Positions 1,386 to 21,111 of a stretch of 64,000 nucleotides of DNA are shown one piece after another; position 1 is the first letter of the stretch; each line of letters starts with the position of its first letter. The DNA is from Pseudanabaena sp. UWO311 (GTDB lineage: Bacteria; Cyanobacteriota; Cyanobacteriia; Pseudanabaenales; Pseudanabaenaceae): contig CALRWX020000001.1 in NCBI GenBank assembly GCA_943371975.1, positions 24,725 through 88,724 of the forward strand, read 5' to 3'. The position numbers and the translations under genes are program-made. Below the pieces are notes generated by a model, which saw nothing but the letters and a program-made list of their open reading frames with translations, had not been told where the DNA came from and searched no databases.

Positions 1386-1424
1386 AAAATTGATAGCGAG
1401 GCTTTGCCTCGCTATCAATTTTTT
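1384..1424 (+). terminator. rho-independent terminator of the methyltransferase gene
   Basis: aaaaaattgatagcgagg / cctcgctatcaatttttt form a perfect 18-bp stem with loop ctttg and a 3' T-run. It overlaps the stop codon. Confidence 0.8.
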
Positions 1425-1520
1425 ACCGCGTACCCCTTATCTTTAAAAATTATTACAAATATATTATGTATTTTTGTATACTGATAGGTTGAATGGGACA
1501 TACAAAAGGTATTTAATCGC

Positions 1521-3215
1521 GTGAGTCAGCATCCCCTAGAAGAGCTAAATCGCTACGATGCAAAAGCCAATGCCGAATATTACGGTCGTCGCCCTTGGCT
1601 AGCGATTAGTCGTATTTTAAAAATAATTTATTTTGCTTTTAGTTTTGGCTTGGCTTTCGGCTGGGATGTCTTGACTGGCAACACAGTGAGTCAGCCCAAG
1701 CTAGCCGAACAATTACGACGCATCATTACCGACCTTGGCCCGACATATATCAAAGTTGGACAGGCTCTATCGACTCGTCCTGATTTAGTGCGTGTGGATT
1801 TTCTAGAGGAGTTAACTAGACTTCAAGACCAATTACCGCCATTTTCTAATCAGCAAGCTTTTAGGATTATTGAGTCTGAACTAGGCAAACCAGTTAATAG
1901 CGCTTATCGCACTATTTCCAAAGATCCGATCGCGGCGGCAAGTCTAGGGCAAGTCTACAAGGCGACTCTGTATTCAGGTGAAGAAGTTGCAGTGAAAGTG
2001 CAACGCCCCGATCTGATTCCCACCTTGACCCTCGATTTATTTATATTACGTTGGTTTGCAGGATGGTTGGGACCGCTTTTACCTCTAAATCTTGGCAATA
2101 GTCTTGAGGCGATCGTTGATGAGTTTGGACTGAAATTATTTGAAGAAATCGACTACGCCCATGAAGCCACTAACGCTGAAAGGTTTGCTGGATATTTTAA
2201 AAATGATCCTGATGTTAAAGTCCCTTCTATCTATCGTCAGTACAGCACCCATAAAGTCCTGACCCTAGAATGGATTAATGGCATCAAACTCAATGAAATC
2301 GATCAGATCAAATCGGCGGGACTAAATACAGATAATCTTGTTCGCATTGGTGTGATGTCTGGGTTACGTCAATTGCTAGAATTTGGATTTTTCCACGCCG
2401 ATCCTCACCCCGGAAATCTTTTTGCTACCTACGATGGCAAGATGGCATATATAGACTTTGGGATGATGGATCAATTAGATCTGGCTACCAAAGAGCAATT
2501 AGTGGATTCCGTTGTGCATTTGCTCAATAGAGATTATGACGGACTGGGGCAGGACTATGTGAGACTCGGCTTTCTACAACCAGATATTGAGATGAAGCCG
2601 ATTGTGAATGCTCTGGAATCAGTACTAGGTGACATTATGTCGGAGAAGGTGAAGGACTTCAACTTTAAAGTTGTAACCGATCGCTTCTCGAAAGTGATGT
2701 ATGAATATCCTTTCTGCTTGCCTGCTAAGTTTGCGCTGATTATTCGATCTGTGATCACACAGGAAGGAGTTGCCCTTAGCCTCAATCCTGAATTTAGGAT
2801 CGTGCAGGTTGCTTATCCCTATGTGGCACGGCGCTTGCTAACCGATGAATCCGAGAGCTTAAGGTCACGATTATTGGAAGTTCTATTTAAAGACGATCAA
2901 TTCCAATGGTCAAGACTAGAGAATCTATTAGCGATCGCTAAGTCCGATGGTCAGTTTGATATTATTCCTACCGCTAGTATGGGCTTCAAGTTCTTAACTT
3001 CTAAAGATGGAGAATATATCCGCCGTCGCATTTTGTTAGCCCTTACCGAAGACAATCGCCTGCACACAGAGGAACTAATGCGAATCTGGAATATGCTCAG
3101 TGCTGATCTTGAACCTGCAAAATTGTGGGATATGGCAATTAAAACTGTAGCTGGTGTAATGCCCAAGGCGATCGCGGCTGCCCTTCCCTTTGTCGCCTTT
3201 CAGAACGTAAATTAA
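1521..3215 (+). CDS. ABC1/UbiB-family atypical protein kinase
   Basis: 564 aa with a GTG start. Contains LGPTYIKVGQALSTRPD, AAASLGQVYKA, VAVKVQRP and FFHADPHPGN, which are hallmark ABC1 kinase motifs. Confidence 0.9.
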   Translation: MSQHPLEELNRYDAKANAEYYGRRPWLAISRILKIIYFAFSFGLAFGWDVLTGNTVSQPKLAEQLRRIITDLGPTYIKVGQALSTRPDLVRVDFLEELTRLQDQLPPFSNQQAFRIIESELGKPVNSAYRTISKDPIAAASLGQVYKATLYSGEEVAVKVQRPDLIPTLTLDLFILRWFAGWLGPLLPLNLGNSLEAIVDEFGLKLFEEIDYAHEATNAERFAGYFKNDPDVKVPSIYRQYSTHKVLTLEWINGIKLNEIDQIKSAGLNTDNLVRIGVMSGLRQLLEFGFFHADPHPGNLFATYDGKMAYIDFGMMDQLDLATKEQLVDSVVHLLNRDYDGLGQDYVRLGFLQPDIEMKPIVNALESVLGDIMSEKVKDFNFKVVTDRFSKVMYEYPFCLPAKFALIIRSVITQEGVALSLNPEFRIVQVAYPYVARRLLTDESESLRSRLLEVLFKDDQFQWSRLENLLAIAKSDGQFDIIPTASMGFKFLTSKDGEYIRRRILLALTEDNRLHTEELMRIWNMLSADLEPAKLWDMAIKTVAGVMPKAIAAALPFVAFQNVN

Positions 3216-3248
3216 CATCACCCGCGCCTTCGGCGGGGGGATGTTAAT
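3211..3248 (+). terminator. GC-rich imperfect stem-loop after the ABC1 kinase gene
   Basis: attaacatcacccgcgcc ttc ggcggggggatgttaat has one mismatch and one bulge, and no clear T-run. Confidence 0.45.
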
Positions 3249-3324
3249 TAATATTAAAGAAATCCATAAATTATGTTTAGAATCAAGTTAAGCAGTTTAA
3301 AAATGACTTAGGGGCTTACAGCAA

Positions 3325-3384
3325 AATAAAGAACCGATTTTTTGTGGTGCAGCGAAGCCGCACCATAAAAATCGTTTCTTTATT
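3325..3384. repeat. long imperfect hairpin preceded by a TTAGGGGCTTACAGCA box
   Basis: aataaagaaccgattttttgtggtgc ... gcaccataaaaatcgtttctttatt. The upstream box at about 3308-3323 resembles the TTAGGACTTACGCA box seen at 41372 and 54178. Confidence 0.6.
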
Positions 3385-3435
3385 AAATCGCACAACCCTT
3401 ATAGGCTGTTTAGAAAAAATTAGAAAAAGAAACTA

Positions 3436-4920
3436 ATGGGAAAACCGACAGGATTTATTGAGTACCTACGCGAAGCACCAACTGAAATATCACCAAGCGA
3501 TCGCATCAAAAATTGGGATGAATTTCATGTGCATATGCCCGATCAGAATCTGCGTAATCAGGGCGCTCGATGTATGGACTGTGGCACACCATTTTGCCAC
3601 ACAGGCAATTTGATCAGTGGTATGGCAAGCGGATGCCCAATTAATAACCTGATTCCTGAATGGAACGACTTAGTTTATCGTGGACTATGGCGGGAAGCCC
3701 TTGTTCGGTTGCATAAAACTAACAATTTCCCAGAATTTACAGGGCGTGTTTGTCCTGCCCCTTGCGAAGGTTCCTGTGTTCTTGGGATCACTAATCCACC
3801 TGTAACGATCAAAAATATCGAGTATTCAATCATTGACAAGGGATGGGAAGAAGGCTGGATCGTCCCCGAACCACCTGCTAAACGCACAGGAAAAAAGGTT
3901 GCTGTAATTGGTTCAGGTCCTGCAGGATTGAGCGTTGCTGCCCAACTTAACAAAGCTGGTCACTGGGTTACAGTTTATGAACGCGCCGATCGCCCAGGGG
4001 GATTGTTAATGTATGGAATCCCTAACATGAAGTTGGAGAAGGAAAAAGTGGTATTGCGCCGCTTAAATATTCTTGAACAAGAAGGCGTAAAGTTCATTTG
4101 CAATACAGAAATTGGTAAAGATCTGCCTGCGGAAAATTTGCTCAAAGACTTTGATGCTGTAGTGCTTTGTACTGGAGCAACTAAGCCTCGTGATCTTGCG
4201 ATCGAAGGTCGTGAACTTAAAGGTATTCATTTCGCAATGGAATTTTTGACTGCGAATACAAAGGCAGTTCTTAATGGCAAATCAGGGGATGACTTTATTT
4301 CGGCGCAAGGCAAGGATGTTGTGATCATCGGTGGTGGTGACACTGGCACTGACTGCGTTGGCACATCGATTCGTCATGGCTGCACCAGCGTTGTCCAATT
4401 GGAAATTATGCCTAAGCCTCCAGAATCCCGTGCCAAGGACAACCCTTGGCCAGAATGGCCCAAAGTCTACAAAATGGACTACGGACAGGAAGAAGCGAGT
4501 GCTAAGTTTGGTGACGATCCCAGAGCTTACATCACTACAGCGACTAAGATCGAAGGAGACGAAAACGGTCAGGTAAAGGCTGTTCATACCGTGCAGGTGC
4601 AATGGAAGCGTAATGACAAAGGTCAGTTCATTCCTAATCAAGTTGCTGGCACTGAGAAGGTTATCCCTGCCCAAATGGTTTTATTGGCTATGGGTTTCCT
4701 TGGTCCAGAGCAGCCTTTACTAGATTCTCTAGGATTAGAACGCGATCCCCGCAGTAACGTCAAAGCGAATCATGGTCAATTCACTACTAGTCTCCCTAGC
4801 GTTTTTGCCGCAGGAGATTGTCGTCGCGGTCAAAGTCTGATCGTTTGGGCAATTAACGAAGGTCGTGGTGCTGCCCGTGAATGCGATCGCTATCTGATGG
4901 GTGATACAGATTTACCCTAA
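3436..4920 (+). CDS. gltD: glutamate synthase small (beta) subunit, NAD(P)H-dependent
   Basis: 494 aa. N-terminal Cys cluster ([10 protein letters not shown] ... CPAPCEGSC), dinucleotide fold [11 protein letters not shown] and second fold [13 protein letters not shown]. This is the canonical GltD layout. Confidence 0.9.
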
Positions 4921-4933
4921 GCCAATGTATTAA

Positions 4934-4953
4934 CAAGGGGCTTAAGCCCCTTG
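4934..4953 (+). terminator. short GC stem-loop after gltD
   Basis: caaggggc ttaa gccccttg, 14 nt after the stop, with no strong T-run. Confidence 0.5.
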
Positions 4954-4978
4954 CCTGTAATAAATCAAGGAACAAATC

Positions 4979-5200
4979 ATGCCAACCAATGTATCGGTTT
5001 CTCTTGAAACTGTCTATGAAAATCTTAATAAACTCGATCAAGTAGATCTCACCACTAGTGCTGAATATAGAGAGATGGCGCAGGACATTCTTGCTGATTC
5101 TGATATTAATAAGGATGTCCGTGAAGCGATCGCAGATCGACTCAATCAAGCCAATCAACAACTAATTAATACAACTGTTAGCAAAACCGATAGCTATTAA
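4979..5200 (+). CDS. hypothetical small acidic protein (73 aa)
   Basis: An ATG is preceded by aaggaac. The ORF is followed by hairpins at 5216-5295. I recognise no family. Confidence 0.4.
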   Translation: MPTNVSVSLETVYENLNKLDQVDLTTSAEYREMAQDILADSDINKDVREAIADRLNQANQQLINTTVSKTDSY

Positions 5201-5230
5201 AGAGTTAAAAAGAATAGGTGGCGCAAAGCG

Positions 5231-5295
5231 CCTAAATTCTAATCAAAAAGAATTGCTGCGAGTCCCACAGCAATTCTTTTTGATTAGAATTTAGG
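5231..5295. repeat. 65-bp perfect inverted repeat (28-bp arms)
   Basis: cctaaattctaatcaaaaagaattgctg cgagtccca cagcaattctttttgattagaatttagg. Confidence 0.9.
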
Positions 5296-5386
5296 AACTT
5301 ATTTCTTTAGTTGACACTCCTTCTATAAAGCCGTCCTAGAAGGACGGGGTATTTTAAACCCAATTTCCCGATAAGGAGCGAGAATC

Positions 5387-6457
5387 ATGTTGCCAAATCG
5401 ACTTAGTTTAATGGCTGTGATCGTAAGTCTTACATTGCTTGGATGTAGTAAGCCCGAATCGACTAATTCATCACCATCACCTAATAGTTCGGATACCAAT
5501 ACTCCGACATCTAAAACTACTACCTCGTCAACAGCAACTTCGGGAACTTCTAAAGCAAATTCTTCTATATCATCAAATGATTCTGCAAAGGCGATCGCAG
5601 TCGGCAACATCAAAGAACTTGAAGATAATAGTATCTGTAGTAAGACAAAAACAACCTATGCCTATGGAGAAACTTCTAATTATCGAATTTATATATGTGC
5701 AGATGCTAACGCTCCTGAGCGTGCTCGTTATTACATCAGCCGTAATAAAGATGGTAGTGGTGGTTTAGATTTGGAAGCGATGAATTATAATCCTCAAAAA
5801 TCTGGCAAGATTGAATTTAAGAATGATGGATATATCTATACTCTCGAATCGCCAACTACTCAAAATCCTGAACCTACTTTACGTGTAACTTTCCCAAATG
5901 GAAAGCTAAGTGAGGAACAATTATTAAGATATCTTTCCCGATCTAGTGAATCTACCACCGCATCCAGTAGCACAACTACCACAACACCGTTGGAATATGT
6001 TTTACAAAATCGCGAAAATTTAGGAGTTTGTAAAGACAATTTCCGTGCTGAAGATGGAAAAAGAGGTATGGGTTCTAGGGTATTCCAGCTTTCCACTACA
6101 AAATATCTCGTACAAATTCAATGCTCTCTCGCTGCTTATCAAAGTGTGTTGGAATATGTTCTTTGGATTGATGAATCACCTAAGCCTCGCGTAATTCCCC
6201 TTGAATTTGATGTTTTCCAAGAAGGGAAAAATGGCGAAAAGTCTAAGCGAGTGAATGATCGAGCGATTGTTGGTATACCCAGATTTAACGTGCGATCGCA
6301 AACTATAACCAATTTCACTAAGTTTCGCGGCGTAGGAGACTGCGGCTCATCAGCTATTTATAAATTAGAAGGCGATCGCATAGTTTTACAGGAATTTCGA
6401 GCTAAATATGAATGTGATGGGAAATATATTAAAGATTTTCCAGTAGTTTATCCTTAA
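5387..6457 (+). CDS. lipoprotein with S/T-rich linker and multiple conserved-looking Cys (possibly DUF1176-like)
   Basis: Signal peptide plus lipobox (LTLLGC), then an S/T/N-rich low-complexity tract, then a globular part with 6 Cys. The family assignment is from memory only. Confidence 0.65.
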   Translation: MLPNRLSLMAVIVSLTLLGCSKPESTNSSPSPNSSDTNTPTSKTTTSSTATSGTSKANSSISSNDSAKAIAVGNIKELEDNSICSKTKTTYAYGETSNYRIYICADANAPERARYYISRNKDGSGGLDLEAMNYNPQKSGKIEFKNDGYIYTLESPTTQNPEPTLRVTFPNGKLSEEQLLRYLSRSSESTTASSSTTTTTPLEYVLQNRENLGVCKDNFRAEDGKRGMGSRVFQLSTTKYLVQIQCSLAAYQSVLEYVLWIDESPKPRVIPLEFDVFQEGKNGEKSKRVNDRAIVGIPRFNVRSQTITNFTKFRGVGDCGSSAIYKLEGDRIVLQEFRAKYECDGKYIKDFPVVYP

Positions 6458-6523
6458 ACTTTAAAAACGCCACTTCGCTGCAAACTTAAACCCTAGAGTA
6501 TCGTCAGGGTAGCTGACGATACT

Positions 6524-7429
6524 CTAGGCAAATATTATCTCTTCACTACTAGTTTGGAAGTTAGCATCTAACCACACAATCGATATTTTAGTAACTTGCC
6601 CCGATTCTAAAGTAACTATTGAGAAGTTGCGATGTAATCCCTCATTAGTTTTGAGGATTCTCGGTGTCACCGCTGCATTGAGAAAAACTGTTCCCATCTC
6701 ATTAGTTGCGATCGCCTCACGTCTGCGGCTATTATTCAAGCGCAAATGGTGGTGCATATGACCGAAGGTAACTAATGGAATAGATTTACCCATTTGATAA
6801 GATTTAGAAATTGCCTCAGCAAAATCAGGATCTCCATAGTCGCCACCAATGGGTTTCCAATCTTTACCACAAATGGAATATTCTTCTTTGCCTAGCCCGA
6901 AGGGACCATTATGCCCCAGAAAAATAATATTTTCATGCTTAGCATTACCAACAGATTGGATAATCCTGTTAGTGGAATCTGTAAAATGATTTACTTGAAA
7001 GCGATCGCGGTAAAAGAAACTTTTCTTCCACTTTGAGCCGCCCCAGCTAAAGGGGCGCGAACCAACTACAGAGAGATTAAGTTCAGGAAAGTCAAGCCAG
7101 CAATAGCCAACATGACACTTACCTAAAACATCTAATTGCTGTTGAACGCGGTCTTCTTTGATGCGATCGTAAGGGCATTGCTTTTTAGGATGGAGTTTAC
7201 TATAGGGATCGGTGGAGCTATACCAAGCATCGTGATTGCCTAAAATAATTGCTTTTGGTAAGTTTAAATTGGCGATCGCCTTTACGATTTCAATGGACTC
7301 ATTGCCAAAGTCCCCCACAAATAGAACCAAATCAACATTTAATATATGCAGTGCTAATTGATCTTCAATAGGTTGCCATAAATCATGAACATCACCAACT
7401 ACAGCTATTTTGATGGATGATTTGGGCAT
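6524..7429 (-). CDS. metallophosphoesterase (calcineurin-like)
   Basis: Motifs GDVHD, GDFGNE, GNHD and GHMHH. I prefer the ATG at 7427-7429 (MPKSSIKIAVVGDVHD) over the upstream start at 7498. Confidence 0.85.
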   Translation of the reverse strand: MPKSSIKIAVVGDVHDLWQPIEDQLALHILNVDLVLFVGDFGNESIEIVKAIANLNLPKAIILGNHDAWYSSTDPYSKLHPKKQCPYDRIKEDRVQQQLDVLGKCHVGYCWLDFPELNLSVVGSRPFSWGGSKWKKSFFYRDRFQVNHFTDSTNRIIQSVGNAKHENIIFLGHNGPFGLGKEEYSICGKDWKPIGGDYGDPDFAEAISKSYQMGKSIPLVTFGHMHHHLRLNNSRRREAIATNEMGTVFLNAAVTPRILKTNEGLHRNFSIVTLESGQVTKISIVWLDANFQTSSEEIIFA

Positions 7430-7795
7430 AATTTCAAAAACATAAAATACTATAAAGCAATGCGCTAAGCACATTGCTTTATGAGAGTAGTATAGCAATT
7501 ACAGTTTTTCTAGAGGAATTTCATAATCTGATTCAGGTGAAATGAACCTGTCATCATCATGAGGATATGTTCCTCAGGCAAATTCAGGATTTTTTTGATT
7601 TCTAGATGTCGTAACCACGTTCATTATAGAAAGCTTTTGGAACCCTTGCTACCCCTGTCCCACCCCCTCAACCGAAGGATTGAGATATCAAGAGCCAAGA
7701 TACGTTTTGGAAACTTAAAAATTGGCTCTCAAGGGGCTTCCATGTAGGGGGTTAGATTTGAGAACTATGATCAAAATGGTGGCGTGATTTAGGTG

Positions 7796-8797
7796 CTAGA
7801 GGTCGGTTGGCTCGGCTTGCTTTTTGCCAACGACAAAGCTAATTGCCAAGATAATGAGGAAAAGGATTACACCGGCTCCGAAAATGCCTAGGGCTATTTG
7901 CCGCGATGATGAATAAATATCGTATTGGCGACTCTCAACCAGCAGGGCTGTACGGAAATTCGGCAAATACTGATAAACACCTATCACTGGGATTCCTTCG
8001 CTATTTAGATAGTAGTCTTTGCCTGAGTTTCCATCAAGGGCTTTGCGAATACCTACACTATCTAATGGTTTAAACACATAGTCGGGGGGGCTTTGGGTGG
8101 GCGGCGCAATATAGGTTGCCTGGCCTAAGGAGGTGCGAGCCACTAAATAGGATTTTATAGGTGCTGATCCATCCTGAAGAGCTTCTTTGCTCCGGTTAGC
8201 TGGATCGGCAATTTGGTCATTGAGCTTGCGTAGATTGAGATCAATTGCCAGAAAGCCAGCTTTTTGCTCTGGACTTTTGTAGATAGGTAAGGCAACGGAG
8301 ATCGCAGGCAAGCCTGTGGTTGAATTAGTAAAGAAGTTTAGGGGTTTACTTGGCAGTTCTTCCAGACTTAGGCTTGTAGTTGTATTTTTAAGGGGTTGAT
8401 AAGCTGCATATTTATTGTGATCAGTCGAAAAAACAACAATGCCGCCCTTTGTCAGTAAAGATACGCTATTGCGATTTTGTGCATTGCTTGCGAGAATCGC
8501 TTCAAGATCAAGGCTATTGGCCGAATTAATATCTGCAAGACTGTGGCGTTTCGCTTGCAGAATAGTCAGTGAAATCTTCGTCAGTGTGGAATTCAGAAGA
8601 TCTTTTCTGATGTCTTTGACTTCCTCTTGCCACCATCGGTCAATGCTAGCTTGCTTTTCATTCAAGATAGACTGTTGGTTCGCGAGAGCTTTGGCCCCTA
8701 GGGGAACATTGGCAAGAAGGTAGGTGGTTAGGGCGATTACGCTTGATAAGGCCAAGGAGGCGACGGAGAGCTTGATCAAAAAAGAACGATTTTTCAT
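7796..8797 (-). CDS. membrane-anchored double-Cache-like periplasmic sensor domain protein with no cytoplasmic output domain
   Basis: N-terminal TM segment, about 270 aa of extracytoplasmic region with a dCache-like pattern (long helix, GGIVVFSTD, PAISVALPI, GIPVIGVYQYLP...LLVES), a second TM segment, then only an 11-aa tail (VGKKQAEPTDL). Confidence 0.65.
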   Translation of the reverse strand: MKNRSFLIKLSVASLALSSVIALTTYLLANVPLGAKALANQQSILNEKQASIDRWWQEEVKDIRKDLLNSTLTKISLTILQAKRHSLADINSANSLDLEAILASNAQNRNSVSLLTKGGIVVFSTDHNKYAAYQPLKNTTTSLSLEELPSKPLNFFTNSTTGLPAISVALPIYKSPEQKAGFLAIDLNLRKLNDQIADPANRSKEALQDGSAPIKSYLVARTSLGQATYIAPPTQSPPDYVFKPLDSVGIRKALDGNSGKDYYLNSEGIPVIGVYQYLPNFRTALLVESRQYDIYSSSRQIALGIFGAGVILFLIILAISFVVGKKQAEPTDL

Positions 8798-8807
8798 GGT
8801 TCAGATT

Positions 8808-10181
8808 TCAGTTCCAACTAGCAAAAATGGTGCGGATCTCAGTGATGGCAGCGTCAACTGCCTTTTCTGTCGATATGTCGCCGGTGGCAACGGTCTCAAT
8901 CGCCTTACCCCAGATGTTTTTAGCGATTACCTCGCTGTAACCAGGATTGAGAATCCATGTAGGTATTTTTGAAGACTTCATATCCTGGATTGCAGAGGCG
9001 ATATGTACATCTTTTGCATTACGCCAAAAGGGCATGGCGATAATTGACTTTGTGGTGGGCAAGAAGCGACCCTGAGATCCTTCTACATAACGACTTAGGT
9101 TTTCTGTTTTGAGTACGTAGGAAAGTAAGTCTTTGGCTTGATTGACATTGGAACTGTCAAATACAATGGCTTGCTTTACGGATAAGAAAGATTGCATCGG
9201 TGAGCCGTCAACTTTTTTGGGCCAGGGCACGGAGCCAAGACGTTCGAAGTAAGCGATTTCGTCAGAAATCTGGGAGCCTGGGATTGAAAGTGTCGGGTTA
9301 GCAGTCATCAGGGAAAGACTACTAAGAAAATCGATATTATTATCAGGGTCGGACCAGCTTGTGGCTTTTGGAGGCACATATTTTTCTTTGTAATTACTGG
9401 TGTAATCATTAATTGCGTTGATAATTTTTTTACGCGTAACAGGATCCTCAACATTGAGCTTGCCTGTAGAGGTTACTATTTCGACACTGTGGGCTTCTAG
9501 GAAAAACTCAAAAATATAGGTGGTGTCCCTCGCCCGACTAGACATGGGAAGGGACATCCCATAGATTTTGCCGTAGCCCTTTTGGCGCAATGATTTTTGG
9601 CCGGCATGCCAGAAACCCCAGAATTCTTTCCATTCATTCGGGATCTTTGTTTTTTTATTAGTGACGCCACTGGCCTCATCAACCAGATCTTTCCAGTAAT
9701 GCAGACTGACGGAATGCTGTGAGATCGGAACAGCGTAAACCGACTTTGACTTTGTTTGTTTATTCATGTAGGTAACCCCATCCAAGACCCCTGGTAAGAG
9801 ATCATTTTGGATGGGCTTAACAATGTCGTCAAGGGCAATCAATTTATTATTATAGCTGAGCACGGGAACAACCGTATCGTTGATTCCATAGCCATAGAGG
9901 AGGTCAGGGGTTGGTCCACCATCGATAGCCGAACGTGCTTTCGCAGCCAGTTCATTTTCACTAAAGAAACTTAGGTTGATTTTGTTGCCAGTAATTTTTT
10001 GCCAATTCGCGAAGATCTTTTCAATCGCATCGGTTTCTTCGGGATAATATCCTTCAGACCACCAAACTTCAAGATCGTGCTTGCTTTGCTTGATGTCAAG
10101 ACCTCCCGATAATCCAAGCGATTTACAGGAGGCAAGCATGCCAACGGCAACCCCGGTGGCAACAAAATTTCGTCTCTTCAT
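8808..10181 (-). CDS. ABC-transporter extracellular solute-binding lipoprotein (family 1, sugar-type)
   Basis: 457 aa with a Tat-like RRNFV signal plus lipobox LASC. Its size and composition fit SBP family 1. Its stop lies 10 nt before the start of the dCache ORF. Confidence 0.8.
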   Translation of the reverse strand: MKRRNFVATGVAVGMLASCKSLGLSGGLDIKQSKHDLEVWWSEGYYPEETDAIEKIFANWQKITGNKINLSFFSENELAAKARSAIDGGPTPDLLYGYGINDTVVPVLSYNNKLIALDDIVKPIQNDLLPGVLDGVTYMNKQTKSKSVYAVPISQHSVSLHYWKDLVDEASGVTNKKTKIPNEWKEFWGFWHAGQKSLRQKGYGKIYGMSLPMSSRARDTTYIFEFFLEAHSVEIVTSTGKLNVEDPVTRKKIINAINDYTSNYKEKYVPPKATSWSDPDNNIDFLSSLSLMTANPTLSIPGSQISDEIAYFERLGSVPWPKKVDGSPMQSFLSVKQAIVFDSSNVNQAKDLLSYVLKTENLSRYVEGSQGRFLPTTKSIIAMPFWRNAKDVHIASAIQDMKSSKIPTWILNPGYSEVIAKNIWGKAIETVATGDISTEKAVDAAITEIRTIFASWN

Positions 10182-10184
10182 GTT

Positions 10185-10216
10185 AAGTGAGAATTTTAAG
10201 TGAAAATTTTAAGTGG
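10185..10216. repeat. 13-bp tandem repeat (aagtgaRaatttt x2.5) directly upstream of the SBP start
   Basis: Direct reading: units at 10185-10197, 10198-10210 and a partial unit at 10211-10216. Confidence 0.8.
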
Positions 10217-10348
10217 TTCTAGCAGGTAAGAGGGGGGCTATTCAACCTGAATAAATGATAGATTTCTTAGAGGGTTGACCAGTTCTTCAGACGTTAGATA
10301 AGCCTCTAAGCTTGAACCATTCATGCTGGTTGATGTTAGCGTGGTATG

Positions 10349-11395
10349 CTACCAGGTTGTAAGTATGCCTGCCCATACTGGTAGCATGAAGGCAAATGCA
10401 ATGCAAGAAAGTAAAATCGAGGCAACGGTGAGCTCCACGTCAAGCCCATAGTTTTCAGCTAAGACCAATGAAATAAATCCGCAGGGCATAGCCGATTGAA
10501 GTACCAGCACTAAGCGCTGTGGGCCTTCAAATCCCAATGCAGTCAATGCTGCTGATAGGATCAGGGGGATCAGTACGGTTTTGACCAGGACAGGTTGGAT
10601 TGCAAGTTTTAGGTTGAGATTGGAAGAGAGTTGTTGTATTCTCATGCCCATCACAATAAGTGCAACCATGATCGATGACCAGGCAATTACACCCAGTCCC
10701 GACACAAGCCATTCGGGAATGGTCAGTGTCTTGAGGTAGAGACCAACAAAGAACGCATAAAATGTAGGGTTTTTGGCGACTTCGGTGAGTGCATCCAGAA
10801 GGGCCTCAATGCCGCCTCGCTTGCTAGCCCTTATCGTTGATCCCGCTTCGCTTACGCGATTACCCGAAGCAGCATTGGCTTCTGCACTATTGCGACTGGC
10901 TTGACCAGCAATGAATACGCCGAGGCCATAGCCAGATATGAGTGTGCCAAGGATATCGTAAAGCACGGCCGAACTAAAGTATTGGGGACCTAGTTGTGGC
11001 AATAGTAGAATGACGGGAAATCCTAAGTAACTTGTGTTTCCGAGATAGCTGAGTAATACAAAGCTAGCTTGGGTACTTTTGGACCGCGGCTTGGAAGAGC
11101 TTTTCAACAAGTTCCAACTCAAAAAGATCGCCAACAGCACCGCTGTCCAGGCGATCACTGGCGAGAGCCAAACGGATGCGTTGAAATCGGCTTTACGGAT
11201 GAAGTTAGCAACCCCAATCGGAATCCCGACGAGGTAGAGAAACCGAGCCAATACATTCGGAAGAAATTCCTGAATGGGCTGGTTACGGATCACTCGTCTG
11301 GAGAGAGTCAGAACGAAGCTGAGTAACACTCCGAAAAGAGATACGGCAATAATTGGGAGATAAACAGCGGTAGCGATCTGAAGGATTGATTGCAT
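10349..11395 (-). CDS. AEC (auxin efflux carrier) family transporter
   Basis: 348 aa with about 5+5 TM segments separated by a hydrophilic central loop. The termini are typical of the AEC/MdcF-like permease family. Confidence 0.8.
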   Translation of the reverse strand: MQSILQIATAVYLPIIAVSLFGVLLSFVLTLSRRVIRNQPIQEFLPNVLARFLYLVGIPIGVANFIRKADFNASVWLSPVIAWTAVLLAIFLSWNLLKSSSKPRSKSTQASFVLLSYLGNTSYLGFPVILLLPQLGPQYFSSAVLYDILGTLISGYGLGVFIAGQASRNSAEANAASGNRVSEAGSTIRASKRGGIEALLDALTEVAKNPTFYAFFVGLYLKTLTIPEWLVSGLGVIAWSSIMVALIVMGMRIQQLSSNLNLKLAIQPVLVKTVLIPLILSAALTALGFEGPQRLVLVLQSAMPCGFISLVLAENYGLDVELTVASILLSCIAFAFMLPVWAGILTTW

Positions 11396-11469
11396 AATTG
11401 ATGCGAAAAGGATTTAAGCTTCCTTTAGGCAAGTAAGTAAAATCTTGCTTAGTATACACATTAACGACC

Positions 11470-11633
11470 TTAGTGGTGCAGAAAAGTCTGAAAACCCGCA
11501 TTATGTCGTAGTCTTAACCTAAGATGTATTTTAACAACTTTTACTCAAAGCCTTGTAAATAAGCTATTTCAAGACATCAATTTACCTCAATAAAATCTCA
11601 AATAAGACCTCAAAAAGTTTTCTGCTCCACTAA
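11470..11633. repeat. 164-bp segment bounded by 18-bp inverted repeats (MITE-like)
   Basis: ttagtggtgcagaaaagt (11470-11487) against the reverse complement of agttttctgctccactaa (11616-11633): 16 of 18 match. Confidence 0.5.
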
Positions 11634-11644
11634 GAACTAACGGT

Positions 11645-13621
11645 TTAGCAAGCAAAGTTTGTAAAGGGAATTGTTGCCGCTTTGATGTCTGACTCTAGGG
11701 TCTGGTTGCGTTTGATAATCACCGGTTCCTGGATGAAGGCCAGCTCAGCTGTATTGAACGGAGTCGTTTGCTTATGGTGCTTGCCTAGGGCAACCTGCAG
11801 GGCTGCTTGTGGAGAATAGTCTTTCAGGGAGATGCCAGTAAGGCCGAGGATATTTGGCTCGGCTATGATTGGAGATCGGCCTGATGGCTGATCAAGATTA
11901 GCAATGCCAGGGGGATGATTGAGCTCGACGAGAAAATCAAGAACGTGTTGATTGTCAGTAGCAATAAACAGATTTTCAAACTTGCGTAAAATGACTAAGA
12001 GCCTTAGGGCCCTTTGCCCCCCTTCTCCGAGTCCCTTGAAGCCGAGGAAATTGGTTGATTGTTGTAAAAAAATAAGGGCATCACGGGCACCACTGTTGGC
12101 AAAGTGATGACTGGTTCCCGTAATCACATGGCGATGGTTACCAAAGCTATAGGCGAAGGGTTCATCCAGACACTGGGCGAGCTCCTTTAGAAGGGGTGCT
12201 TTTGCTTCAGCCTGGGTATCGGCTGAAATAATGCTAATGAGTAAGGTTTCGAGCCTTGCGAAGAATTTGTCCTCGTTGCTCACAAGCCGCAAGTAGTCTT
12301 CCCAGCGCTTAAGGATGGCTTGTTTGATTTGACTTCGCTTGCGATCGCATAGGTCTTTGTTGGCTTGGATCTGGCCAGAATCGCGGGCTTCTGCGATGGA
12401 TTCATGTACAAAGCTGCGTAGGGCATTGAGATGCAACATGGTTCCTGCATTCCCTATACCATTGGAATTTTTGATTTCATTGCAGGCGTTGAACATCAGG
12501 GCGCTTCGACAGTCTGGCCGAGGTATGAGAATTTGATTGGATGCATCGTCAAAGCTACAGAGAAAATGTAAGCCTCTGGCTCCTGCCAGAATGTCCGTTG
12601 CCTTTCTCTCTTCGGTGTCTACAATGACGAAACTCACTGGGTGATCGAGGGTGACTGTTCGATCCATTTCCAGTTGCTTCGTTAGGACTGCCCTGTTTTT
12701 GTCCTGATCACCAACCCAAATGCAATCGGGTTGATCGGCGATCTTGGCTAGGACCGAAACGCCAAGAGGATCGGCTTTTAGGCGGCCAAATTCTCCCCGA
12801 AGGTGGGTCGTAATTTCCTTGGTGAAATGATCGATTAATGTTACGAAATGGTTATGGGCTTCGCCAGGTCTGGTCAGAGCATGGCACAGCACTTCCATGG
12901 TATGAGTGATGCGAATGATATTGAGGCAACCAATGCCAATAGCAAGCATTTTGTTGATGCCACCGCTGCCTGCGCGGCCCTCATAGGGGTGCAGATCCGT
13001 ATCGCCACCGCTGATAATATAATCATAATGCCATAGCGCAGCCGGAAGCCCGATTCTTATGCACTCTGGTGGACTCGATTCGCCTATGCCTTGCACAACA
13101 GATTGATGATATGGGACTGTCGCATGGGTCTGGTCTTCGAAGGTTTTGGGTGGCGGGGGAATGGTGATGTACCGTTGGGGAAGCGGTTTTAGGGTTGTTT
13201 GCTGTTGCAGGGTGCTGCCCAGAGCGGCAAGGCGTTCCAGCCTTTGGGAACCCATCATGGTTGCGATGTCTTCATCTGACATTAGCGGATGGGTCCCAAG
13301 TCCGAAGATGATGTCAAAGGAAAGCTTCGGCTCGGATTGGCAGAGTTCAACCATCGCGTCGACGAGTAGTCGCGACGCGGTTTGTTTGCGCGTTTTATCT
13401 GGCAAAAGCAAGAGCACCCTGATGTCGCTTTGCAATTCGCTCGGATGGATCTGTGTCAGCAATGGCAGGAGGTGGTCGCGCAGTTGGGGAAGGCTGAGCT
13501 GCCGAGAAATTCCGCTAGCGGGCGCATCCTTGGGGATCAGAATCTGGGCGTCTAGGGGAAGCTCAAGATGGCTATTGGGATAACTTTTAAGGTCGATTTG
13601 TTGAGTTTTACCCAAGTTCAT
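11645..13621 (-). CDS. LarA-N (DUF2088, lactate-racemase-like) domain protein with an unrecognised ~300-aa C-terminal extension
   Basis: 658 aa. LLLLPDKTRKQ, FGLGTHPLMSDEDIATMMG and GGDTDLHPYEGRAGSGGINKM resemble the D-x-T-R, G-T-H and H...SGGxK motifs of nickel-pincer LarA. Confidence 0.65.
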   Translation of the reverse strand: MNLGKTQQIDLKSYPNSHLELPLDAQILIPKDAPASGISRQLSLPQLRDHLLPLLTQIHPSELQSDIRVLLLLPDKTRKQTASRLLVDAMVELCQSEPKLSFDIIFGLGTHPLMSDEDIATMMGSQRLERLAALGSTLQQQTTLKPLPQRYITIPPPPKTFEDQTHATVPYHQSVVQGIGESSPPECIRIGLPAALWHYDYIISGGDTDLHPYEGRAGSGGINKMLAIGIGCLNIIRITHTMEVLCHALTRPGEAHNHFVTLIDHFTKEITTHLRGEFGRLKADPLGVSVLAKIADQPDCIWVGDQDKNRAVLTKQLEMDRTVTLDHPVSFVIVDTEERKATDILAGARGLHFLCSFDDASNQILIPRPDCRSALMFNACNEIKNSNGIGNAGTMLHLNALRSFVHESIAEARDSGQIQANKDLCDRKRSQIKQAILKRWEDYLRLVSNEDKFFARLETLLISIISADTQAEAKAPLLKELAQCLDEPFAYSFGNHRHVITGTSHHFANSGARDALIFLQQSTNFLGFKGLGEGGQRALRLLVILRKFENLFIATDNQHVLDFLVELNHPPGIANLDQPSGRSPIIAEPNILGLTGISLKDYSPQAALQVALGKHHKQTTPFNTAELAFIQEPVIIKRNQTLESDIKAATIPFTNFAC

Positions 13622-14034
13622 GATTGAGCTTTAATTTGATTATTAAATGAGACCAAGGATTGGCTGGATTAGAAAGCATTTAAGAACGCAAGGGCGCAGT
13701 ACAACAGGTATCAGTATCTATACTTTTTTTAATGCGGCAACCCTATTAAATAAGTTATATGGTGAGTCATAGTTTTTTGTGTTTTAACAACACTCACATA
13801 TACTCACACATACTCATATATCACAATAATCAAAGATATTCAAAGAAATTAGCAAACAGGTGAAGTGGACATTGAAAATAAGTGCTTAAAACAGTTGCAT
13901 TTCATGCTTGAAGAGTTAATTTATCTTTCATTTGTGCGAGGCCCCCATTTCAGATTTATAGGTCTAGCTTAATGCTTAACACTTTGTAATAATTTTATAT
14001 TAGCATAGACATATCTACACAAGTTACAAAATCT

Positions 14035-17016
14035 ATGCTGGAACCTTCGCTCATCGTGACAACCCAAGATTCTTCGTTCTCAGAAACGAAAGAATTGAGG
14101 GTTCCAGCCTTTTCAAGCAATGCTAAGCATAATGACTACCAAGCAGATTGTCTAAGTAATGATGCGTTTGCCCCCACTGATAGCTTTGTGCGTCGTCATA
14201 TTGGTGCAACATCCCCAGAAACTCAGCAGATGCTCACAGCAATCGGTTGTGACTCTCTTGATGAAATGATTTATAAGACAGTGCCTGCGGCGATCAGAAT
14301 TAAGCAGCCATTGCAACTAGGTGAAGCACGCGGGGAATATGAACTGTTACAAGAATTAAAGGCGATCGCCTCGAAAAACCAAGTTTGGCGATCATATATT
14401 GGCACTGGCTATTACAACTGCATCACACCACCGATTATTCAGCGCAATATTTTAGAAAATCCGGGTTGGTATACGCAATATACCCCTTACCAAGCCGAAA
14501 TTGCTCAAGGTCGCTTGGAAGCTTTGCTCAATTTCCAAACTATGATTATCGACTTGACTGGTTTAGAGATTGCTAACGCTTCTCTCTTAGATGAAGGGAC
14601 GGCGGCGGCAGAAGCGATGACCATGGCGGCGGGAATTGCTAAGAACAAGGGGAATAAGTTCTTTGTATCCAGTGATTGTCATCCGCAAACGATCGCTGTC
14701 GTCAAAACCCGCGCAATTCCTCTAGGCATTGAAGTCGTGATCGCCAAGCACGATCAAGTGATATTTGATCGAGACTACTTTGGGGCATTGTTGCAATATC
14801 CCACTAGCGATGGCGCGATCTATGACTACACAGAAGTTATTTCGCAAATCCATGCTCAAGGTGGTTTAGCGATCGTTGCTGCTGATTTATTAGCACTTAC
14901 TTTGATTAAATCTCCTGCTGAATTGGGATCTGATATTGCGATCGGTAGCGCCCAAAGATTTGGTGTTCCCTTTGGTTATGGAGGTCCTCACGCTGCTTAC
15001 ATGGCAACTAAGGAAGCTTACAAGCGACAAATGCCCGGACGCTTAGTGGGAGTTTCTAAAGATGTGCATGGTCGTCCTGCGCTCCGTTTAGCATTGCAAA
15101 CCCGCGAACAACATATCCGCCGCGATAAGGCAACTAGCAACATTTGTACGGCTCAAGTACTACTGGCAATTATGGCAAGTATGTATGCGGTTTATCACGG
15201 TGCTGAAGGATTAAGGCGGATTGCAAAACGTGTTAACCTCTTAACTTCAAGCCTTGCCCAATCGATCGCCGATCTCGGTCATACAGTTACGCATCAAGCC
15301 TTCTTCGATACAATTCGCATTGAACTAAAGGGAATCTCTAGCGATGAGATTAAAGTTAGAGCTGCTGCCAAACAGATTAATTTAAGGTATTTAGAAAATA
15401 ATGCGATCGCTATCAGCCTCGACGAAACCGTCTCTAAGCAAGATTTAATTGATCTGATTGCTATATTTTCTGAAGATCAATTAGGAATTAGGGATTCCGA
15501 ATTAAGAATTCCTGATTCTCAATTCGGAATTTCCAGTTCTCTCATTCGTAATTCCCCGTATCTCACCCATCCGACATTCAATTCCTATCATTCTGAATCA
15601 GAGTTATTACGCTATATCTATCGTCTGCAATCAAAGGATTTATCGCTCACCACATCGATTATTCCTCTTGGTTCCTGTACGATGAAGCTCAATGCTACTT
15701 CTGAGATGCTTCCCATGACATGGGCAGAGTTTGGCAATATTCATCCCTTTGTACCATTGGAGCAAACCCAAGGCTATCAGATTCTGTTTCGACAATTAGA
15801 AACTTGGCTCGCGGAAATCACAGGCTTTGCAGGCGTATCACTCCAACCTAACGCGGGATCTCAGGGTGAATATGCAGGTTTACTCACAATTCGAGCCTAC
15901 CACCAACATCGAGGACAAACCAATCGTCATATCTGCCTAATACCCACCTCGGCACATGGGACAAATCCTGCAAGTGCAGTTATGGCAGGGATGAAGGTTG
16001 TGACGGTAAATTGCGATCGCGAGGGCAATATTGATCTCATAGACCTCAAGGCAAAAGCCGAAAAACATCAGCATGAACTCGCGGCTCTAATGGTGACTTA
16101 TCCTTCGACTCATGGCGTGTTTGAGGAATCGATTAAGGATATTTGCGATGTCGTTCACTATCACGGTGGACAGGTATATATGGATGGCGCGAATATGAAT
16201 GCTCAAGTCGGTCTCTGTCGTCCGGGAGATATTGGTGCGGATGTCTGCCATTTGAATCTGCATAAGACTTTCTGTATTCCTCATGGTGGTGGTGGACCGG
16301 GGATGGGACCGATTTGTGTTGCTCCGCAGCTAGTTCCATTTTTGCCAATGCATCCTTTAGAAGAAGTTGTAGAACCAAATACCATTTCGGCAGCTCCTTG
16401 GGGTAGTGCGAGTATTCTCACAATTTCATGGGTATATATTGCTTTGATGGGAGCGAAAGGCTTGAAACTGGCGACCGAAATGGCGATTCTCAATGCAAAC
16501 TATATGGCTCAACGTCTTGCTCCCCACTATCCGATTCTTTATACAGGCAAAAATGGCTTGGTTGCCCATGAATGTATCATTGACCTACATGATTGCAAAA
16601 ATATTGCTGGTATTGAGGTAGATGATATTGCCAAGCGCTTGATGGACTATGGCTTCCATGCCCCAACAGTTTCTTGGCCAGTGGCGGGGACGATGATGAT
16701 CGAGCCAACGGAAAGTGAATCAAAAGCGGAACTCGATCGCTTCTGTGATGCGATGATCGCCATTAAGCAAGAGGTGAATGCGATCGCCTCTGGTGATCTC
16801 GAAAAACTGGACAATCCCCTCAAAAATGCACCGCATACTGCCGAAAGTTTATTAGCTGATGATTGGGCTCATGCCTATAGTCGCCATCAAGCCGCCTATC
16901 CTGCCCCTTGGCTGAAGGAACATAAATTCTGGGCAAGTGTGGGACGTATTGATAATGCTTTTGGCGATCGCAATTTCGTTTGCTCTTGCCTCCCTATACA
17001 AGCCTACGAAGCATAA
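14035..17016 (+). CDS. gcvP: glycine dehydrogenase (decarboxylating), glycine cleavage system P protein
   Basis: 993 aa single-chain P protein with [29 protein letters not shown] and [19 protein letters not shown] (PLP-lysine region). Confidence 0.95.
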
Positions 17017-17049
17017 AATAAAGTTCTGCCAAAGGCAGAACTTTATTTT
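17015..17049 (+). terminator. rho-independent terminator of gcvP
   Basis: aaaataaagttctgcc aaa ggcagaactttatttt forms a perfect 16-bp stem ending in a T-run. Confidence 0.85.
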
Positions 17050-17061
17050 TAAAAGAAACCT

Positions 17062-17745
17062 ATGCGAATCTTATTGGTGGATGATGAGGAAGAACTGGCA
17101 GAACCTTTGCAAAGGGTTTTGACAAATCAGGGCTATGTCGTGGATAGCGCCAGTAGTGGCGATCGCGGATGGGAGTTGGCTCAGGTTGGCGAATACGATC
17201 TGTTGATTTTAGACTGGATGATGCCAGAGAAATCAGGGATTGAGATTTGTCGGAATTTGCGCGAAAAAGGCGATAGTACCCCTGTTCTGATACTTACCGC
17301 CAAAGATACGCTCGACGATCGCGTGACAGGTTTAGATAGCGGAGCCGATGACTATCTGGTTAAACCCTTTGAATTGCGAGAATTATTAGCTAGAGTCAGA
17401 GCTTTATTGCGCCGCGCCCCAACTGCGATCGCTGTAACCGTTGAAACTTCTCGGTTGAGCTATGGAGATTTAGAACTTGATCGCGAAAATCAATTGGTCT
17501 ATCGTGATCAAGTAGCGATCGCTTTAACAGAAAGAGAATATCAACTTTTAGAATATTTCCTACTCCATCCCAATCAGTTATTGAGTCATGAGCAGATTTC
17601 ACAACATATATGGAAAGAAGGTGAAGATTTGCCCACTAGTAATGCTTTGGCTGCCCAAATAAAATTATTACGTCGTAAAATAGATCGCGATCGGCAGATC
17701 TCTCTAATCAATACGGTATATGGTAAGGGATATCGTTTTGGTTAA
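17062..17745 (+). CDS. OmpR-family two-component response regulator (orphan; no kinase is adjacent)
   Basis: Receiver domain (MRILLVDDEEE ... LILDWMMP ... LTAKD ... KPF) plus a winged-helix C-terminus (TVYGKGYRF). Confidence 0.9.
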   Translation: MRILLVDDEEELAEPLQRVLTNQGYVVDSASSGDRGWELAQVGEYDLLILDWMMPEKSGIEICRNLREKGDSTPVLILTAKDTLDDRVTGLDSGADDYLVKPFELRELLARVRALLRRAPTAIAVTVETSRLSYGDLELDRENQLVYRDQVAIALTEREYQLLEYFLLHPNQLLSHEQISQHIWKEGEDLPTSNALAAQIKLLRRKIDRDRQISLINTVYGKGYRFG

Positions 17746-17759
17746 AAATTTGTATAAAA

Positions 17760-17820
17760 ATCCCCGACTTCTTTTGTGGAATTGAAAGGTATTTTTGGTA
17801 GAAGAGAAGAAGTCGGGGAT
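17760..17820. repeat. dispersed hairpin with ATCCCCGACTT / AAGTCGGGGAT stems
   Basis: atccccgacttctt (17760-17773) pairs with aagaagtcggggat (17807-17820). The same stem motif occurs inside the MITE at 43390-43451. Confidence 0.8.
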
Positions 17821-18005: not shown

Positions 18006-18353
18006 TCATGGTAATGCTTTGCCTCTACAGGATTTTGTCCATCCACCAATTTCAGAACCGATATCTTGTAATTCTTTGTTGAAATATTCGTAGCGATTAT
18101 TTAGTAATAATTCAAAATCATGTAATAGACGAATTTGATAGCGTAAGATGTCAATATTAGAGTTAAGTTCTTCTAGTATGGGAAGTTTGTTTTTGTGGTA
18201 ACGTGCTATGATTAATTTGTCTAGCAAATCATAAAGTGAAGTGATAATTCTATTACCTAACAAATATTTGTGATCGTGAGATAATTTATTAAGAATTGGT
18301 ACTGTCCATTTGATTAAATCGTAGGTTTTTTGAATTACTGGCAGTTCGTTCAT
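18006..18353 (-). CDS. avd: four-helix-bundle protein resembling DGR accessory variability determinant (Avd)
   Basis: 115 aa. PVIQKTYDLIKWTVPILNKLSHDHKYLLGNRI ... LDILRYQIRLLHDFELL ... GGWTK is what I recognise as cyanobacterial Avd / 23S-rRNA-IVS-protein family. It lies directly downstream of a VR-bearing target gene. Confidence 0.7.
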   Translation of the reverse strand: MNELPVIQKTYDLIKWTVPILNKLSHDHKYLLGNRIITSLYDLLDKLIIARYHKNKLPILEELNSNIDILRYQIRLLHDFELLLNNRYEYFNKELQDIGSEIGGWTKSCRGKALP

Positions 18354-18390
18354 GAAATCTCTTTACAAAAGTCAACAATAGCCAAAATCG

Positions 18391-18418
18391 AAAAACAAAA
18401 AAAAGTGCCAAAGGCACT
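18391..18418 (-). terminator. rho-independent terminator between the DGR-type target gene and avd
   Basis: On the minus strand: agtgcc ttt ggcact followed by ttttttttgttttt. Confidence 0.7.
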
Positions 18419-18506
18419 GAACCTAAGTGCAAAATATAAAGCGCAAAAGGGCTAAAAAGCAAAGAAGAAGCCCTCACGCACGCGGAAGGAAGAAAAAGAA
18501 CGGAAC

Positions 18507-21061: not shown

Positions 21062-21111
21062 ATAAACCTAGAAAATTTCGGCAACTTTTCGATATTGTAT
21101 CGTATTGCTTA
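21062..21111 (+). repeat. right copy of the 50-bp direct repeat flanking hicBA
   Basis: ataaacctagaaaatttcggcaacttttcgatattgtatcgtattgctta. Confidence 0.9.

Follow-up and report, generated by a model that had tools for sequence, protein, structure and literature searches.

A four-gene genomic island in Pseudanabaena, probably acquired from the allele pool of freshwater picocyanobacteria

Genes and features at the locus

The DNA analysed here (the window) is a stretch of 64,000 nt from Pseudanabaena sp. UWO311 (contig CALRWX020000001.1). Between its metallophosphoesterase (MPE) gene and gcvP we observed a block of four genes on the minus strand, encoding a LarA-like protein, an AEC-family permease, an orphan solute-binding protein (SBP) and a dCache sensor protein that lacks an output domain (Table 1). 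An initial annotation, made from the sequence alone, had listed these genes and proposed that the block was horizontally acquired. Domain matches agree with that gene content (dCache_1, SBP_bac_8 and SBP_bac_1, Mem_trans of the AEC family and, weakly, Lar_N; every gene is on the minus strand), and three comparative observations, which carry the decisive weight, bear out the acquisition: the block is absent from the MPE loci of relatives, its DNA is 80–87% identical to a cassette of picocyanobacteria, and its synonymous divergence (dS) from that cassette, which lies in another order, is below the dS of native genes within the genus. The block is a real and clear but ordinary genomic island, of a known kind. 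It is likely (with a probability of roughly 0.7) that the segment 7796–13673 (minus strand, 5.9 kb; its limits are set by DNA homology to the picocyanobacterial cassettes) is a four-gene cassette imported into the Pseudanabaena lineage from a picocyanobacteria-associated allele pool.

Table 1. Features in and around the four-gene block (window coordinates)
Feature	Coordinates	Strand	Details
MPE (metallophosphoesterase), native left flank	6524..7429	-	TIGR04168, 370 bits; dS 0.48 to UBA1465
Terminator-like hairpin, native, upstream of MPE	7452..7482	-	14-bp stem, then T run
Left junction, 295 nt	7501..7795		Without homology to the donor cassette or to Pseudanabaena relatives
Membrane dCache sensor (transmembrane segment, dCache, transmembrane segment), output-less	7796..8797	-	dCache_1, 36.7 bits versus a cut-off of 45
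Lipoprotein-type family-1 SBP	8808..10181	-	SBP_bac_8, 64 bits; SBP_bac_1, 48 bits
AEC-family (Mem_trans) permease, 348 aa	10349..11395	-	Mem_trans, 77 bits versus a cut-off of 25.7; TIGR00946
Element resembling MITEs (miniature inverted-repeat transposable elements), 166 bp, with 17-nt terminal inverted repeats (TIRs)	11469..11634		Inside a 183-nt insertion (11459–11641) absent from picocyanobacterial alleles
LarA-like protein, 658 aa	11645..13621	-	Divergent nickel-pincer-type racemase/epimerase fold; Lar_N sub-threshold
Sole HIP1 site of the island	12341..12348		Same site at the same codon position in contigs L088 and L089
Right junction, AT-rich	13674..13973		Cassette homology ends at 13673; gcvP-upstream homology to L002 (FACHB-1998) resumes at 13974–14008
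gcvP, native right flank	14035..17016	+	85% aa identity to Pseudanabaena sp. FACHB-1998; 5 HIP1 sites; third-codon-position G+C (GC3) 0.396

MPE is 89% identical to its counterpart in Pseudanabaena sp. UBA1465 and 64–77% identical to those of about 26 other Pseudanabaena or Pseudanabaenales genomes, and the neighboring DUF1176 protein is 69–71% identical to those of other Pseudanabaena; the identities of MPE and GcvP thus place the window in a Pseudanabaena. The four-gene block lies beside MPE in none of the about 27 other Pseudanabaena or Pseudanabaenales MPE loci, including that of the closest genome (UBA1465), and is present only in near-identical contigs of the window's own species. The slot upstream of MPE is occupied by PIN-domain toxin–antitoxin genes in UBA1465 and by an ABC permease gene in many species, and in FACHB-1998 gcvP directly adjoins MPE, both on one strand and inverted relative to the window. 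A simple insertion between MPE and gcvP therefore fits the adjacency seen in FACHB-1998, but neither the opposite orientation there nor the PIN toxin–antitoxin genes of UBA1465; the inverted gcvP and the PIN genes mark the site as a rearrangement hot spot.

The hairpin upstream of MPE is kept with compensatory changes in UBA1465 (contig L001, about 4815–4845), and is also found in L002 (about 3690–3730). This long hairpin with its T run probably insulates MPE, as a terminator, from whichever gene fills the variable upstream slot. The TTG start at 7498 proposed by the ORF (open reading frame) caller runs through the hairpin, so the ATG at 7429 is the likely start of MPE.

Native homology to UBA1465 stops at position 7500, where the left junction begins. 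A 37-nt G+C-rich patch in this junction (7638–7674; LEPLLPLSHPLNR) is 86% identical to the 5′ end of picocyanobacterial sprT (LEPLLPLFHRLNR; E = 1.8e-5). The donor sprT lies ∼4 kb off, on the opposite side of the cassette; the patch might derive from the donor, but is too short to rely on. The AT-rich non-coding borders described in the initial annotation have G+C contents of 0.40 and 0.32, and its decamer low-complexity run proved to be a tandem repeat, (ACTCACATAT)x3, at 13792–13821. No known RNA family was found by an Rfam scan of 7000–14500, which covers both junctions and the MITE-like element.

Base composition and HIP1 content of the island

The palindrome HIP1 (GCGATCGC) occurs 83 times across the whole window, but once in 7796–13673, where 8.3 copies are expected (0.17 versus 1.41 per kb elsewhere; Poisson P = 0.002), and the span 7280–12340 is free of it. 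The counts that had been made by eye are exact: 13 copies in 1–7795, the one at 12341–12348 and eight in 14035–17745. This single site (GCGATCGCAAGCGAAG in the window as well as in L088 and L089) appears to have come along with the cassette. Paucity of HIP1 is an established marker of foreign DNA (PMC3025956, PMC3497702), and the depletion that the initial annotation took as a strong sign of import is there; as a sole marker, however, it is only marginal by scan statistics. Because the region 56597–63710 is equally HIP1-poor (one site in 7.1 kb), HIP1 alone is weak evidence: random placement of the 83 sites gives a span as poor as that one in ∼5% of simulations.

Base composition gives a stronger signal than HIP1. 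Its G+C content is 0.465, as compared with 0.421 for the remaining window, and it tops all 5.9-kb windows (maximum elsewhere 0.448, mean 0.420, standard deviation 0.0115). The GC3 values of its four genes (0.437, 0.467, 0.499 and 0.525) are the four highest among the 43 ORFs, and the codon-usage chi-square is greatest for the LarA-like gene (186, with 41 degrees of freedom). Tetranucleotide usage in the 7–14 kb windows has the lowest correlation with the rest of the window (r = 0.74–0.76), and for the island itself r is 0.92 with the cassette of contig L082 versus 0.76 with the rest of the window. Sliding G+C, GC3, codon usage and tetranucleotide usage thus all deviate from the flanks, as expected of the G+C-richer block that had been proposed. 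Three of four properties of genomic islands are found here (deviant composition, absence in relatives and phylogenetic incongruence); mobility signatures are not.

HIP1-poor islands of a few kilobases, with deviant G+C, codon and tetranucleotide usage, absence from relatives and incongruent phylogeny, are known from cyanobacteria such as Synechococcus elongatus PCC 7942 (PMC3025956; detection by oligomer frequencies, PMC3497702). The block resembles them in all these respects, but it has no integrase, tRNA or repeats, it is G+C-richer than its host, and its source pool is identified and is itself cyanobacterial, of another order.

A related cassette in freshwater picocyanobacteria

Homologues of the LarA-like protein at 73–82% identity sit in a five-gene cassette (contigs L082–L101) that encodes, in order, the LarA-like protein, the AEC permease, the SBP, the dCache protein and a 697-aa adenylate/guanylate cyclase; the window has the same order without the cyclase. 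The site of this cassette is constant in donor-type contigs, with ligA and VTT-domain genes on one side and a DUF1400 gene on the other (in L082, for example, the cassette spans about 10001–17811). The flanking LigA falls in a cluster at ≥90% identity with that of Synechococcus sp. Baikal-G1, so that the hosts are freshwater picocyanobacteria of the Synechococcus/Cyanobium type, and these contigs stem from the same kinds of lake samples as Pseudanabaena. Our literature searches found nothing on the cassette.

The cassette is a low-G+C island in the picocyanobacteria: it has 48–53% G+C (∼49%) and a GC3 of 0.52–0.53 in all alleles, whereas its flanks have 63–70% G+C (for contigs with 900 nt or more of flank; typically ∼68%) and a GC3 of 0.8–0.9, apart from two cyclase-less variants (L098 and L099), which average ∼0.51. 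The window and the donor cassettes have an internal composition gradient in common (LarA-like > AEC > SBP ∼ dCache), and the picocyanobacterial flanks are HIP1-poor too (0.1–0.3 per kb). The variants L098 and L099 lack the cyclase as the window does. They also contain a second, partial copy of the VTT-domain gene (77% identical) downstream of the dCache gene, so that VTT sequences bracket the cassette (about 290–940 and 8052–8409), which hints at integration or rearrangement via recombination at VTT.

Nucleotide similarity between the window and the donor cassettes runs from 13673, which takes in 52 nt upstream of the LarA-like gene, to 7796 and is broken only at 11459–11641: by blastn, 13673–11642 and 11458–7796 are 80–84% identical to L082, L084, L085 and L087–L089. 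Per gene, the window and picocyanobacterial copies share 79–87% of nucleotides and 75–86% of amino acids, with a dS of 0.43–0.79 and dN/dS of 0.13–0.23. Native MPE, by comparison, has a dS of 0.48 to UBA1465, 1.8 to BL-A-41 and 2.2 to FACHB-1998, and native GcvP a dS of 1.7 to FACHB-1998. The baseline for these comparisons is divergence within Pseudanabaena, as the Pseudanabaena and picocyanobacterial loci that we fetched share no housekeeping genes. A dS between orders that lies far below the dS of native genes within a genus leaves horizontal transfer as the only explanation.

Low-G+C flexible islands are known from Synechococcus, Cyanobium and Prochlorococcus (PMC7522525). The donor cassette is similar to them in being a low-G+C insert at a fixed core-gene locus with allele diversity above that of its flanks; it differs in having one allele in a Pseudanabaena, and in not drifting toward the composition of its picocyanobacterial host.

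Direction, timing and changes after transfer

A neighbor-joining tree built from the concatenated sequences of the four proteins (1729 columns; the 56–58% alleles L102 and L103 set the root) groups the window copy with L088 with 84% bootstrap support, and has it basal to all picocyanobacterial alleles in only 11% of the replicates. Polarised nucleotide patterns agree with this placement: 23 derived sites are shared by the window, L088 and L082, and the pattern ‘all picocyanobacteria but the window’ (29 sites) is not in excess (the other all-but-one patterns have 16–34 sites). There are signs of mosaicism among alleles, as the window shares 46 states with L082 and 33 with L088.

The window copy is ameliorating toward the AT-rich composition of its host, and its four ORFs are intact and under purifying selection: GC>AT changes outnumber AT>GC changes on its branch at third (93 versus 42) and first (62 versus 27) codon positions, as compared with 74 versus 60 at third positions on the L088 branch. 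Third-position changes are about equally numerous on the two branches (157 for the window and 166 for L088), but changes at first and second positions are 1.8-fold commoner on the window branch, which we read as a constraint that may have been somewhat relaxed after entry. Cassette homology stops at the stop codon of the dCache gene, and tblastn with the picocyanobacterial cyclase found no remnant of that gene in the window; an apparent extension of dCache homology past the stop codon toward 7736 was too weak to count.

On the most parsimonious history, the Pseudanabaena lineage would have received one allele from the picocyanobacteria-associated pool at roughly the point of its divergence from UBA1465, the nearest congener sampled (dS ∼0.5). 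The route was probably illegitimate recombination following DNA uptake, given the lack of an integrase, a tRNA and flanking repeats. After the transfer the fifth gene (the membrane adenylate cyclase) would have been lost and the 166-bp MITE-like element gained between the first two genes, followed by AT-ward amelioration with somewhat relaxed constraint. The block would be G+C-richer than its host because it keeps the cassette's own composition of ∼50%; its HIP1 paucity would go back to donors that are themselves poor in HIP1, with no site newly arisen since. The import had been called recent; import stands, but recency is relative, as a dS of ∼0.5 to the nearest sampled allele is about the divergence from the closest sampled Pseudanabaena species.

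Alternative explanations

Several points weigh against an import from picocyanobacteria. The cassette is compositionally foreign in the picocyanobacteria as well and shows no drift toward its host there (third-position GC>AT and AT>GC changes are near-balanced), and its ultimate source may be a third lineage of ∼50% G+C. For the direction of transfer the argument is nestedness; the sampling behind it is uneven (a single Pseudanabaena species versus many picocyanobacterial contigs), and the neighbor-joining tree shows signs of allele mosaicism. Absence of the block genome-wide in other Pseudanabaena is judged from protein-database hits and MPE loci, with no dedicated genome scan. Signs of a vehicle are lacking too: the window contains no tRNA according to ARAGORN, a search for repeats on the flanks of the island gave neither direct nor inverted ones, and a domain scan of the four block proteins found no integrase or transposase. 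A profile of the LarA-like family found no viral copy in IMG/VR, which gives no backing to a phage vector, and a plasmid search found the cassette on no plasmid (only the MITE-like element matched). Conversely, the cassette could be native to a Pseudanabaena-like or other filamentous lineage of moderate G+C, from which picocyanobacteria would have acquired it, possibly repeatedly, and spread it by homologous recombination at one locus. This agrees with a G+C content ∼20 points below that of the picocyanobacterial flanks and not drifting upward, with the divergence of the cassette alleles, which between L082 and L085 exceeds that of the neighboring core genes (dS 0.8–0.9 versus 0.22–0.5), and with distant versions in low-G+C contigs that have host-like composition and HIP1 sites (0.44 in flanks of 0.42 for L107, and 0.50 in 0.49 for L111). 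We nevertheless consider such a reverse or third-party origin unlikely, though well worth keeping in mind: the window copy branches inside the group of picocyanobacterial alleles, not at its base, it is still out of compositional equilibrium at home (the 93 versus 42 changes given above), its sole HIP1 site is common to L088, the cassette is missing at the corresponding site of other Pseudanabaena, and the outgroup alleles L102 and L103 are also in hosts of 60% G+C.

Two further explanations would do without any transfer, and both are far less probable. If the block were a native, vertically inherited operon, its composition would be odd because of expression or amino-acid content, and its HIP1 paucity due to chance. 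HIP1-poor stretches do arise otherwise (56.6–63.7 kb is as poor, with normal GC3), and the highly expressed transketolase gene also has a raised GC3 (0.46) and a high codon chi-square; but a native operon is contradicted by 80–87% nucleotide identity and a dS of 0.43–0.79 to genes of another order, when native genes approach saturation even inside the genus, and the block is not found at the relatives' site. The other explanation, a chimera in which assembly or binning joined picocyanobacterial DNA to a Pseudanabaena contig, is suggested by the occurrence of both organisms in metagenomes of one project (GROS21-1 samples). The window is matched at 99.7–100% nucleotide identity by three assemblies made independently (L081 from Logan; L114 and L115 from ENA), in each case across the junctions covered: L114 has the full layout of gcvP, cassette, MPE, DUF1176, gltD and ABC1 and spans both junctions, L115 spans the junction on the MPE side, and L081 that on the gcvP side. 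Their agreement excludes a chimera for practical purposes, and the block, moreover, differs in 13–21% of its DNA from every picocyanobacterial allele and has its own MITE-like insertion and AT-ward substitution bias.

Predicted functions of the cassette genes

Structure comparison and sequence motifs point to the 658-aa protein as a divergent nickel-pincer-type racemase or epimerase. Its AlphaFold model (pLDDT 84, pTM 0.85) was compared with the PDB by Foldseek, and the top 19 matches are all LarA-family proteins (E = 1e-13; target-normalised TM-score 0.72–0.77, both domains). The family profile aligns to the malate racemase Mar2 (6D6Z) over the GLGTH and LHPYEGRAGSGGINK...H motifs, which puts GLGTH111, LH211, GGINK224 and H240 on equivalent residues, and H111, H211, K224 and H240 (H108, H174, K184 and H200 in LarA) are invariant in 49 family sequences. 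Compared with the lactate racemase (5HUQ), Mar2 and the Isosphaera LarA (9EIA), the protein shares the two-domain fold and has, invariant in its family, counterparts of the two catalytic histidines, of the lysine that tethers the cofactor and of the histidine that binds nickel. It differs in having only 10–13% sequence identity to them, with Lar_N and NCBIfam scores below the cut-offs, in being ∼230 aa longer, with an extra helical insertion of ∼150 aa in the model (residues ∼392–547), and in its gene neighbors, which encode a carrier, an SBP and sensors instead of LarB, LarC and LarE; its substrate and cofactor use are predicted. Among 5.8 billion proteins, its homologues make up no more than 59 clusters (at 90% identity); all named clusters are cyanobacterial.

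The AEC permease has about 8–10 hydrophobic segments and shares 81–85% of amino acids with the picocyanobacterial copies, as compared with 82–86% for the SBP. The latter is an orphan: no ABC permease or ATPase gene is present in the cassette in any host, and no close relative with a solved structure was found by sequence. Hydrophobic segments of the dCache protein are at residues 5–33 and 297–329, and the protein ends ∼10 residues past the second, with no cytoplasmic output domain. The order LarA-like, AEC, lipoprotein SBP and output-less dCache is kept across cyanobacteria down to ∼30% identity. The transducer that comes next varies: picocyanobacteria have a cyclase that includes a periplasmic domain of its own, L107 a dCache-HAMP histidine kinase and L111 a dCache-HAMP protein. 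In relatives the gene after dCache is always such a transducer (cyclase or dCache-HAMP histidine kinase); it is missing in the window. A distant SBP gene (43% identical) followed by a gene for a 993-aa dCache-HAMP-PAS-HisKA-HATPase-receiver hybrid kinase was also seen in L005 (6–3689), from the metagenome-assembled genome Pseudanabaena sp. GL79_UP; the pair lies ∼5 kb upstream of MPE and is oriented as the window cassette. PADLOC found no defence-system match for the four window proteins, and we discarded PycC as an identity for the relatives' cyclase, since its match is only via the generic class III cyclase domain.

SBP-dependent signalling through periplasmic sensor proteins is known from systems of the LuxP-LuxQ and TorT-TorS type. 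The cassette is similar in placing an orphan SBP gene beside genes for membrane proteins with periplasmic Cache-type domains, to which the relatives add a kinase or cyclase output. It differs in having an extra, output-less dCache protein and an output that varies by lineage and is absent in the window; interactions among its proteins are putative. Extracellular sensing would fall to the SBP and the dCache protein, transport of the substrate to the AEC carrier, and its racemisation or epimerisation to the nickel-pincer-type LarA homologue; we infer a module that may sense, transport and stereo-invert an exogenous 2-hydroxy-acid or sugar-acid, with its signalling output lost in the window copy. 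This prediction draws on domain content, and several results count against it: Lar_N (PF09861) scores 21.7 bits, below the Pfam threshold of 23.3; the NCBIfam models of the LarA type, which uses the nickel-pincer nucleotide (NPN), reach 16–30 bits against cut-offs of 460–500; the dCache_1 match is likewise sub-threshold (Table 1); and no larB, larC or larE genes were found in the window or beside any cassette examined. larBCE genes are widespread in cyanobacteria, where recognisable LarA is mostly absent (PMC11796402).

The MITE-like element

An element bounded by inverted repeats had been noted inside the block, and was found at nearly the same position with 17-nt arms that are 94% complementary (Table 1). 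The element is non-coding and AT-rich, and lies between the genes for the LarA-like protein and the AEC permease. An 86% identical copy is present on plasmid5 of Calothrix sp. NIES-4101 (AP018278.1, 4001–4169), with the identity bounded exactly by the TIRs, and the element seems from its sequence to behave as a MITE. The Calothrix copy lies between moaA and a WD-repeat gene, in intergenic DNA that carries no annotation; the plasmid is mobilizable (MOBF) and its host belongs to the Nostocales. A search of the window and of an earlier set of the other loci gave no further copy, and no unambiguous target-site duplication abuts the TIRs. The element resembles bacterial MITEs (PMC10969869, PMC3184786) in being short, AT-rich, non-coding and intergenic, with TIRs and a second copy with sharp ends, but differs in that only two copies are known here, with no clear target-site duplication and no parent insertion sequence identified among the loci analysed.

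Other regions of the window

The HIP1-poor region 56597–63710 has a low tetranucleotide correlation (r = 0.75) and a normal GC3 of 0.35–0.38. Encoded there are an ABC exporter carrying C39 peptidase and cNMP-binding domains and a 912-aa protein with calpain and PPC domains. This region may likewise be atypical or acquired, or else deviate due to unusual protein composition. At 18006–20345, a bAvd-like gene (encoding an accessory protein of diversity-generating retroelements, DGRs) adjoins a gene whose 612-aa product has an FGE-sulfatase/C-type-lectin-like domain at its C terminus, the usual fold of DGR targets. The interval 17.7–21.4 kb showed neither a reverse transcriptase nor a template/variable repeat pair, and the two genes may represent a DGR remnant or a split DGR. 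A 50-nt non-coding direct repeat (20433–20482 and 21062–21111, 92% identical and 629 nt apart) is found upstream of a TamB-like gene.

Implications

The island is a clean and datable case of gene flow between co-occurring but very distant orders, the Pseudanabaenales and the freshwater Synechococcus/Cyanobium, in which the donor pool, the boundaries, gene loss after transfer, a MITE-like insertion and measurable amelioration are all identified. The cassette has ∼50% G+C in genomes of 42% as well as 68% G+C. The case also bears on the use of HIP1 at the 64-kb scale: its paucity flagged a true island here, whereas the equally poor region at 56.6–63.7 kb has ordinary GC3. The lead gene represents a deep branch of LarA, in a phylum reported to be mostly without it, and bears on what cyanobacteria use the NPN cofactor for, although its family (59 clusters) is too rare to be the general answer.

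A bolder idea, which we regard as rather improbable at present, is that the cassette is a self-contained mobile module that moves between lineages of lake cyanobacteria, built around this unrecognised LarA branch and serving to sense, take up and stereo-invert a hydroxy- or sugar-acid. If so, its ∼50% G+C would reflect frequent movement from host to host rather than residence in one, and the LarA-like protein would be one ‘missing’ client of the nickel-pincer pathway that most cyanobacteria encode without a recognisable LarA.

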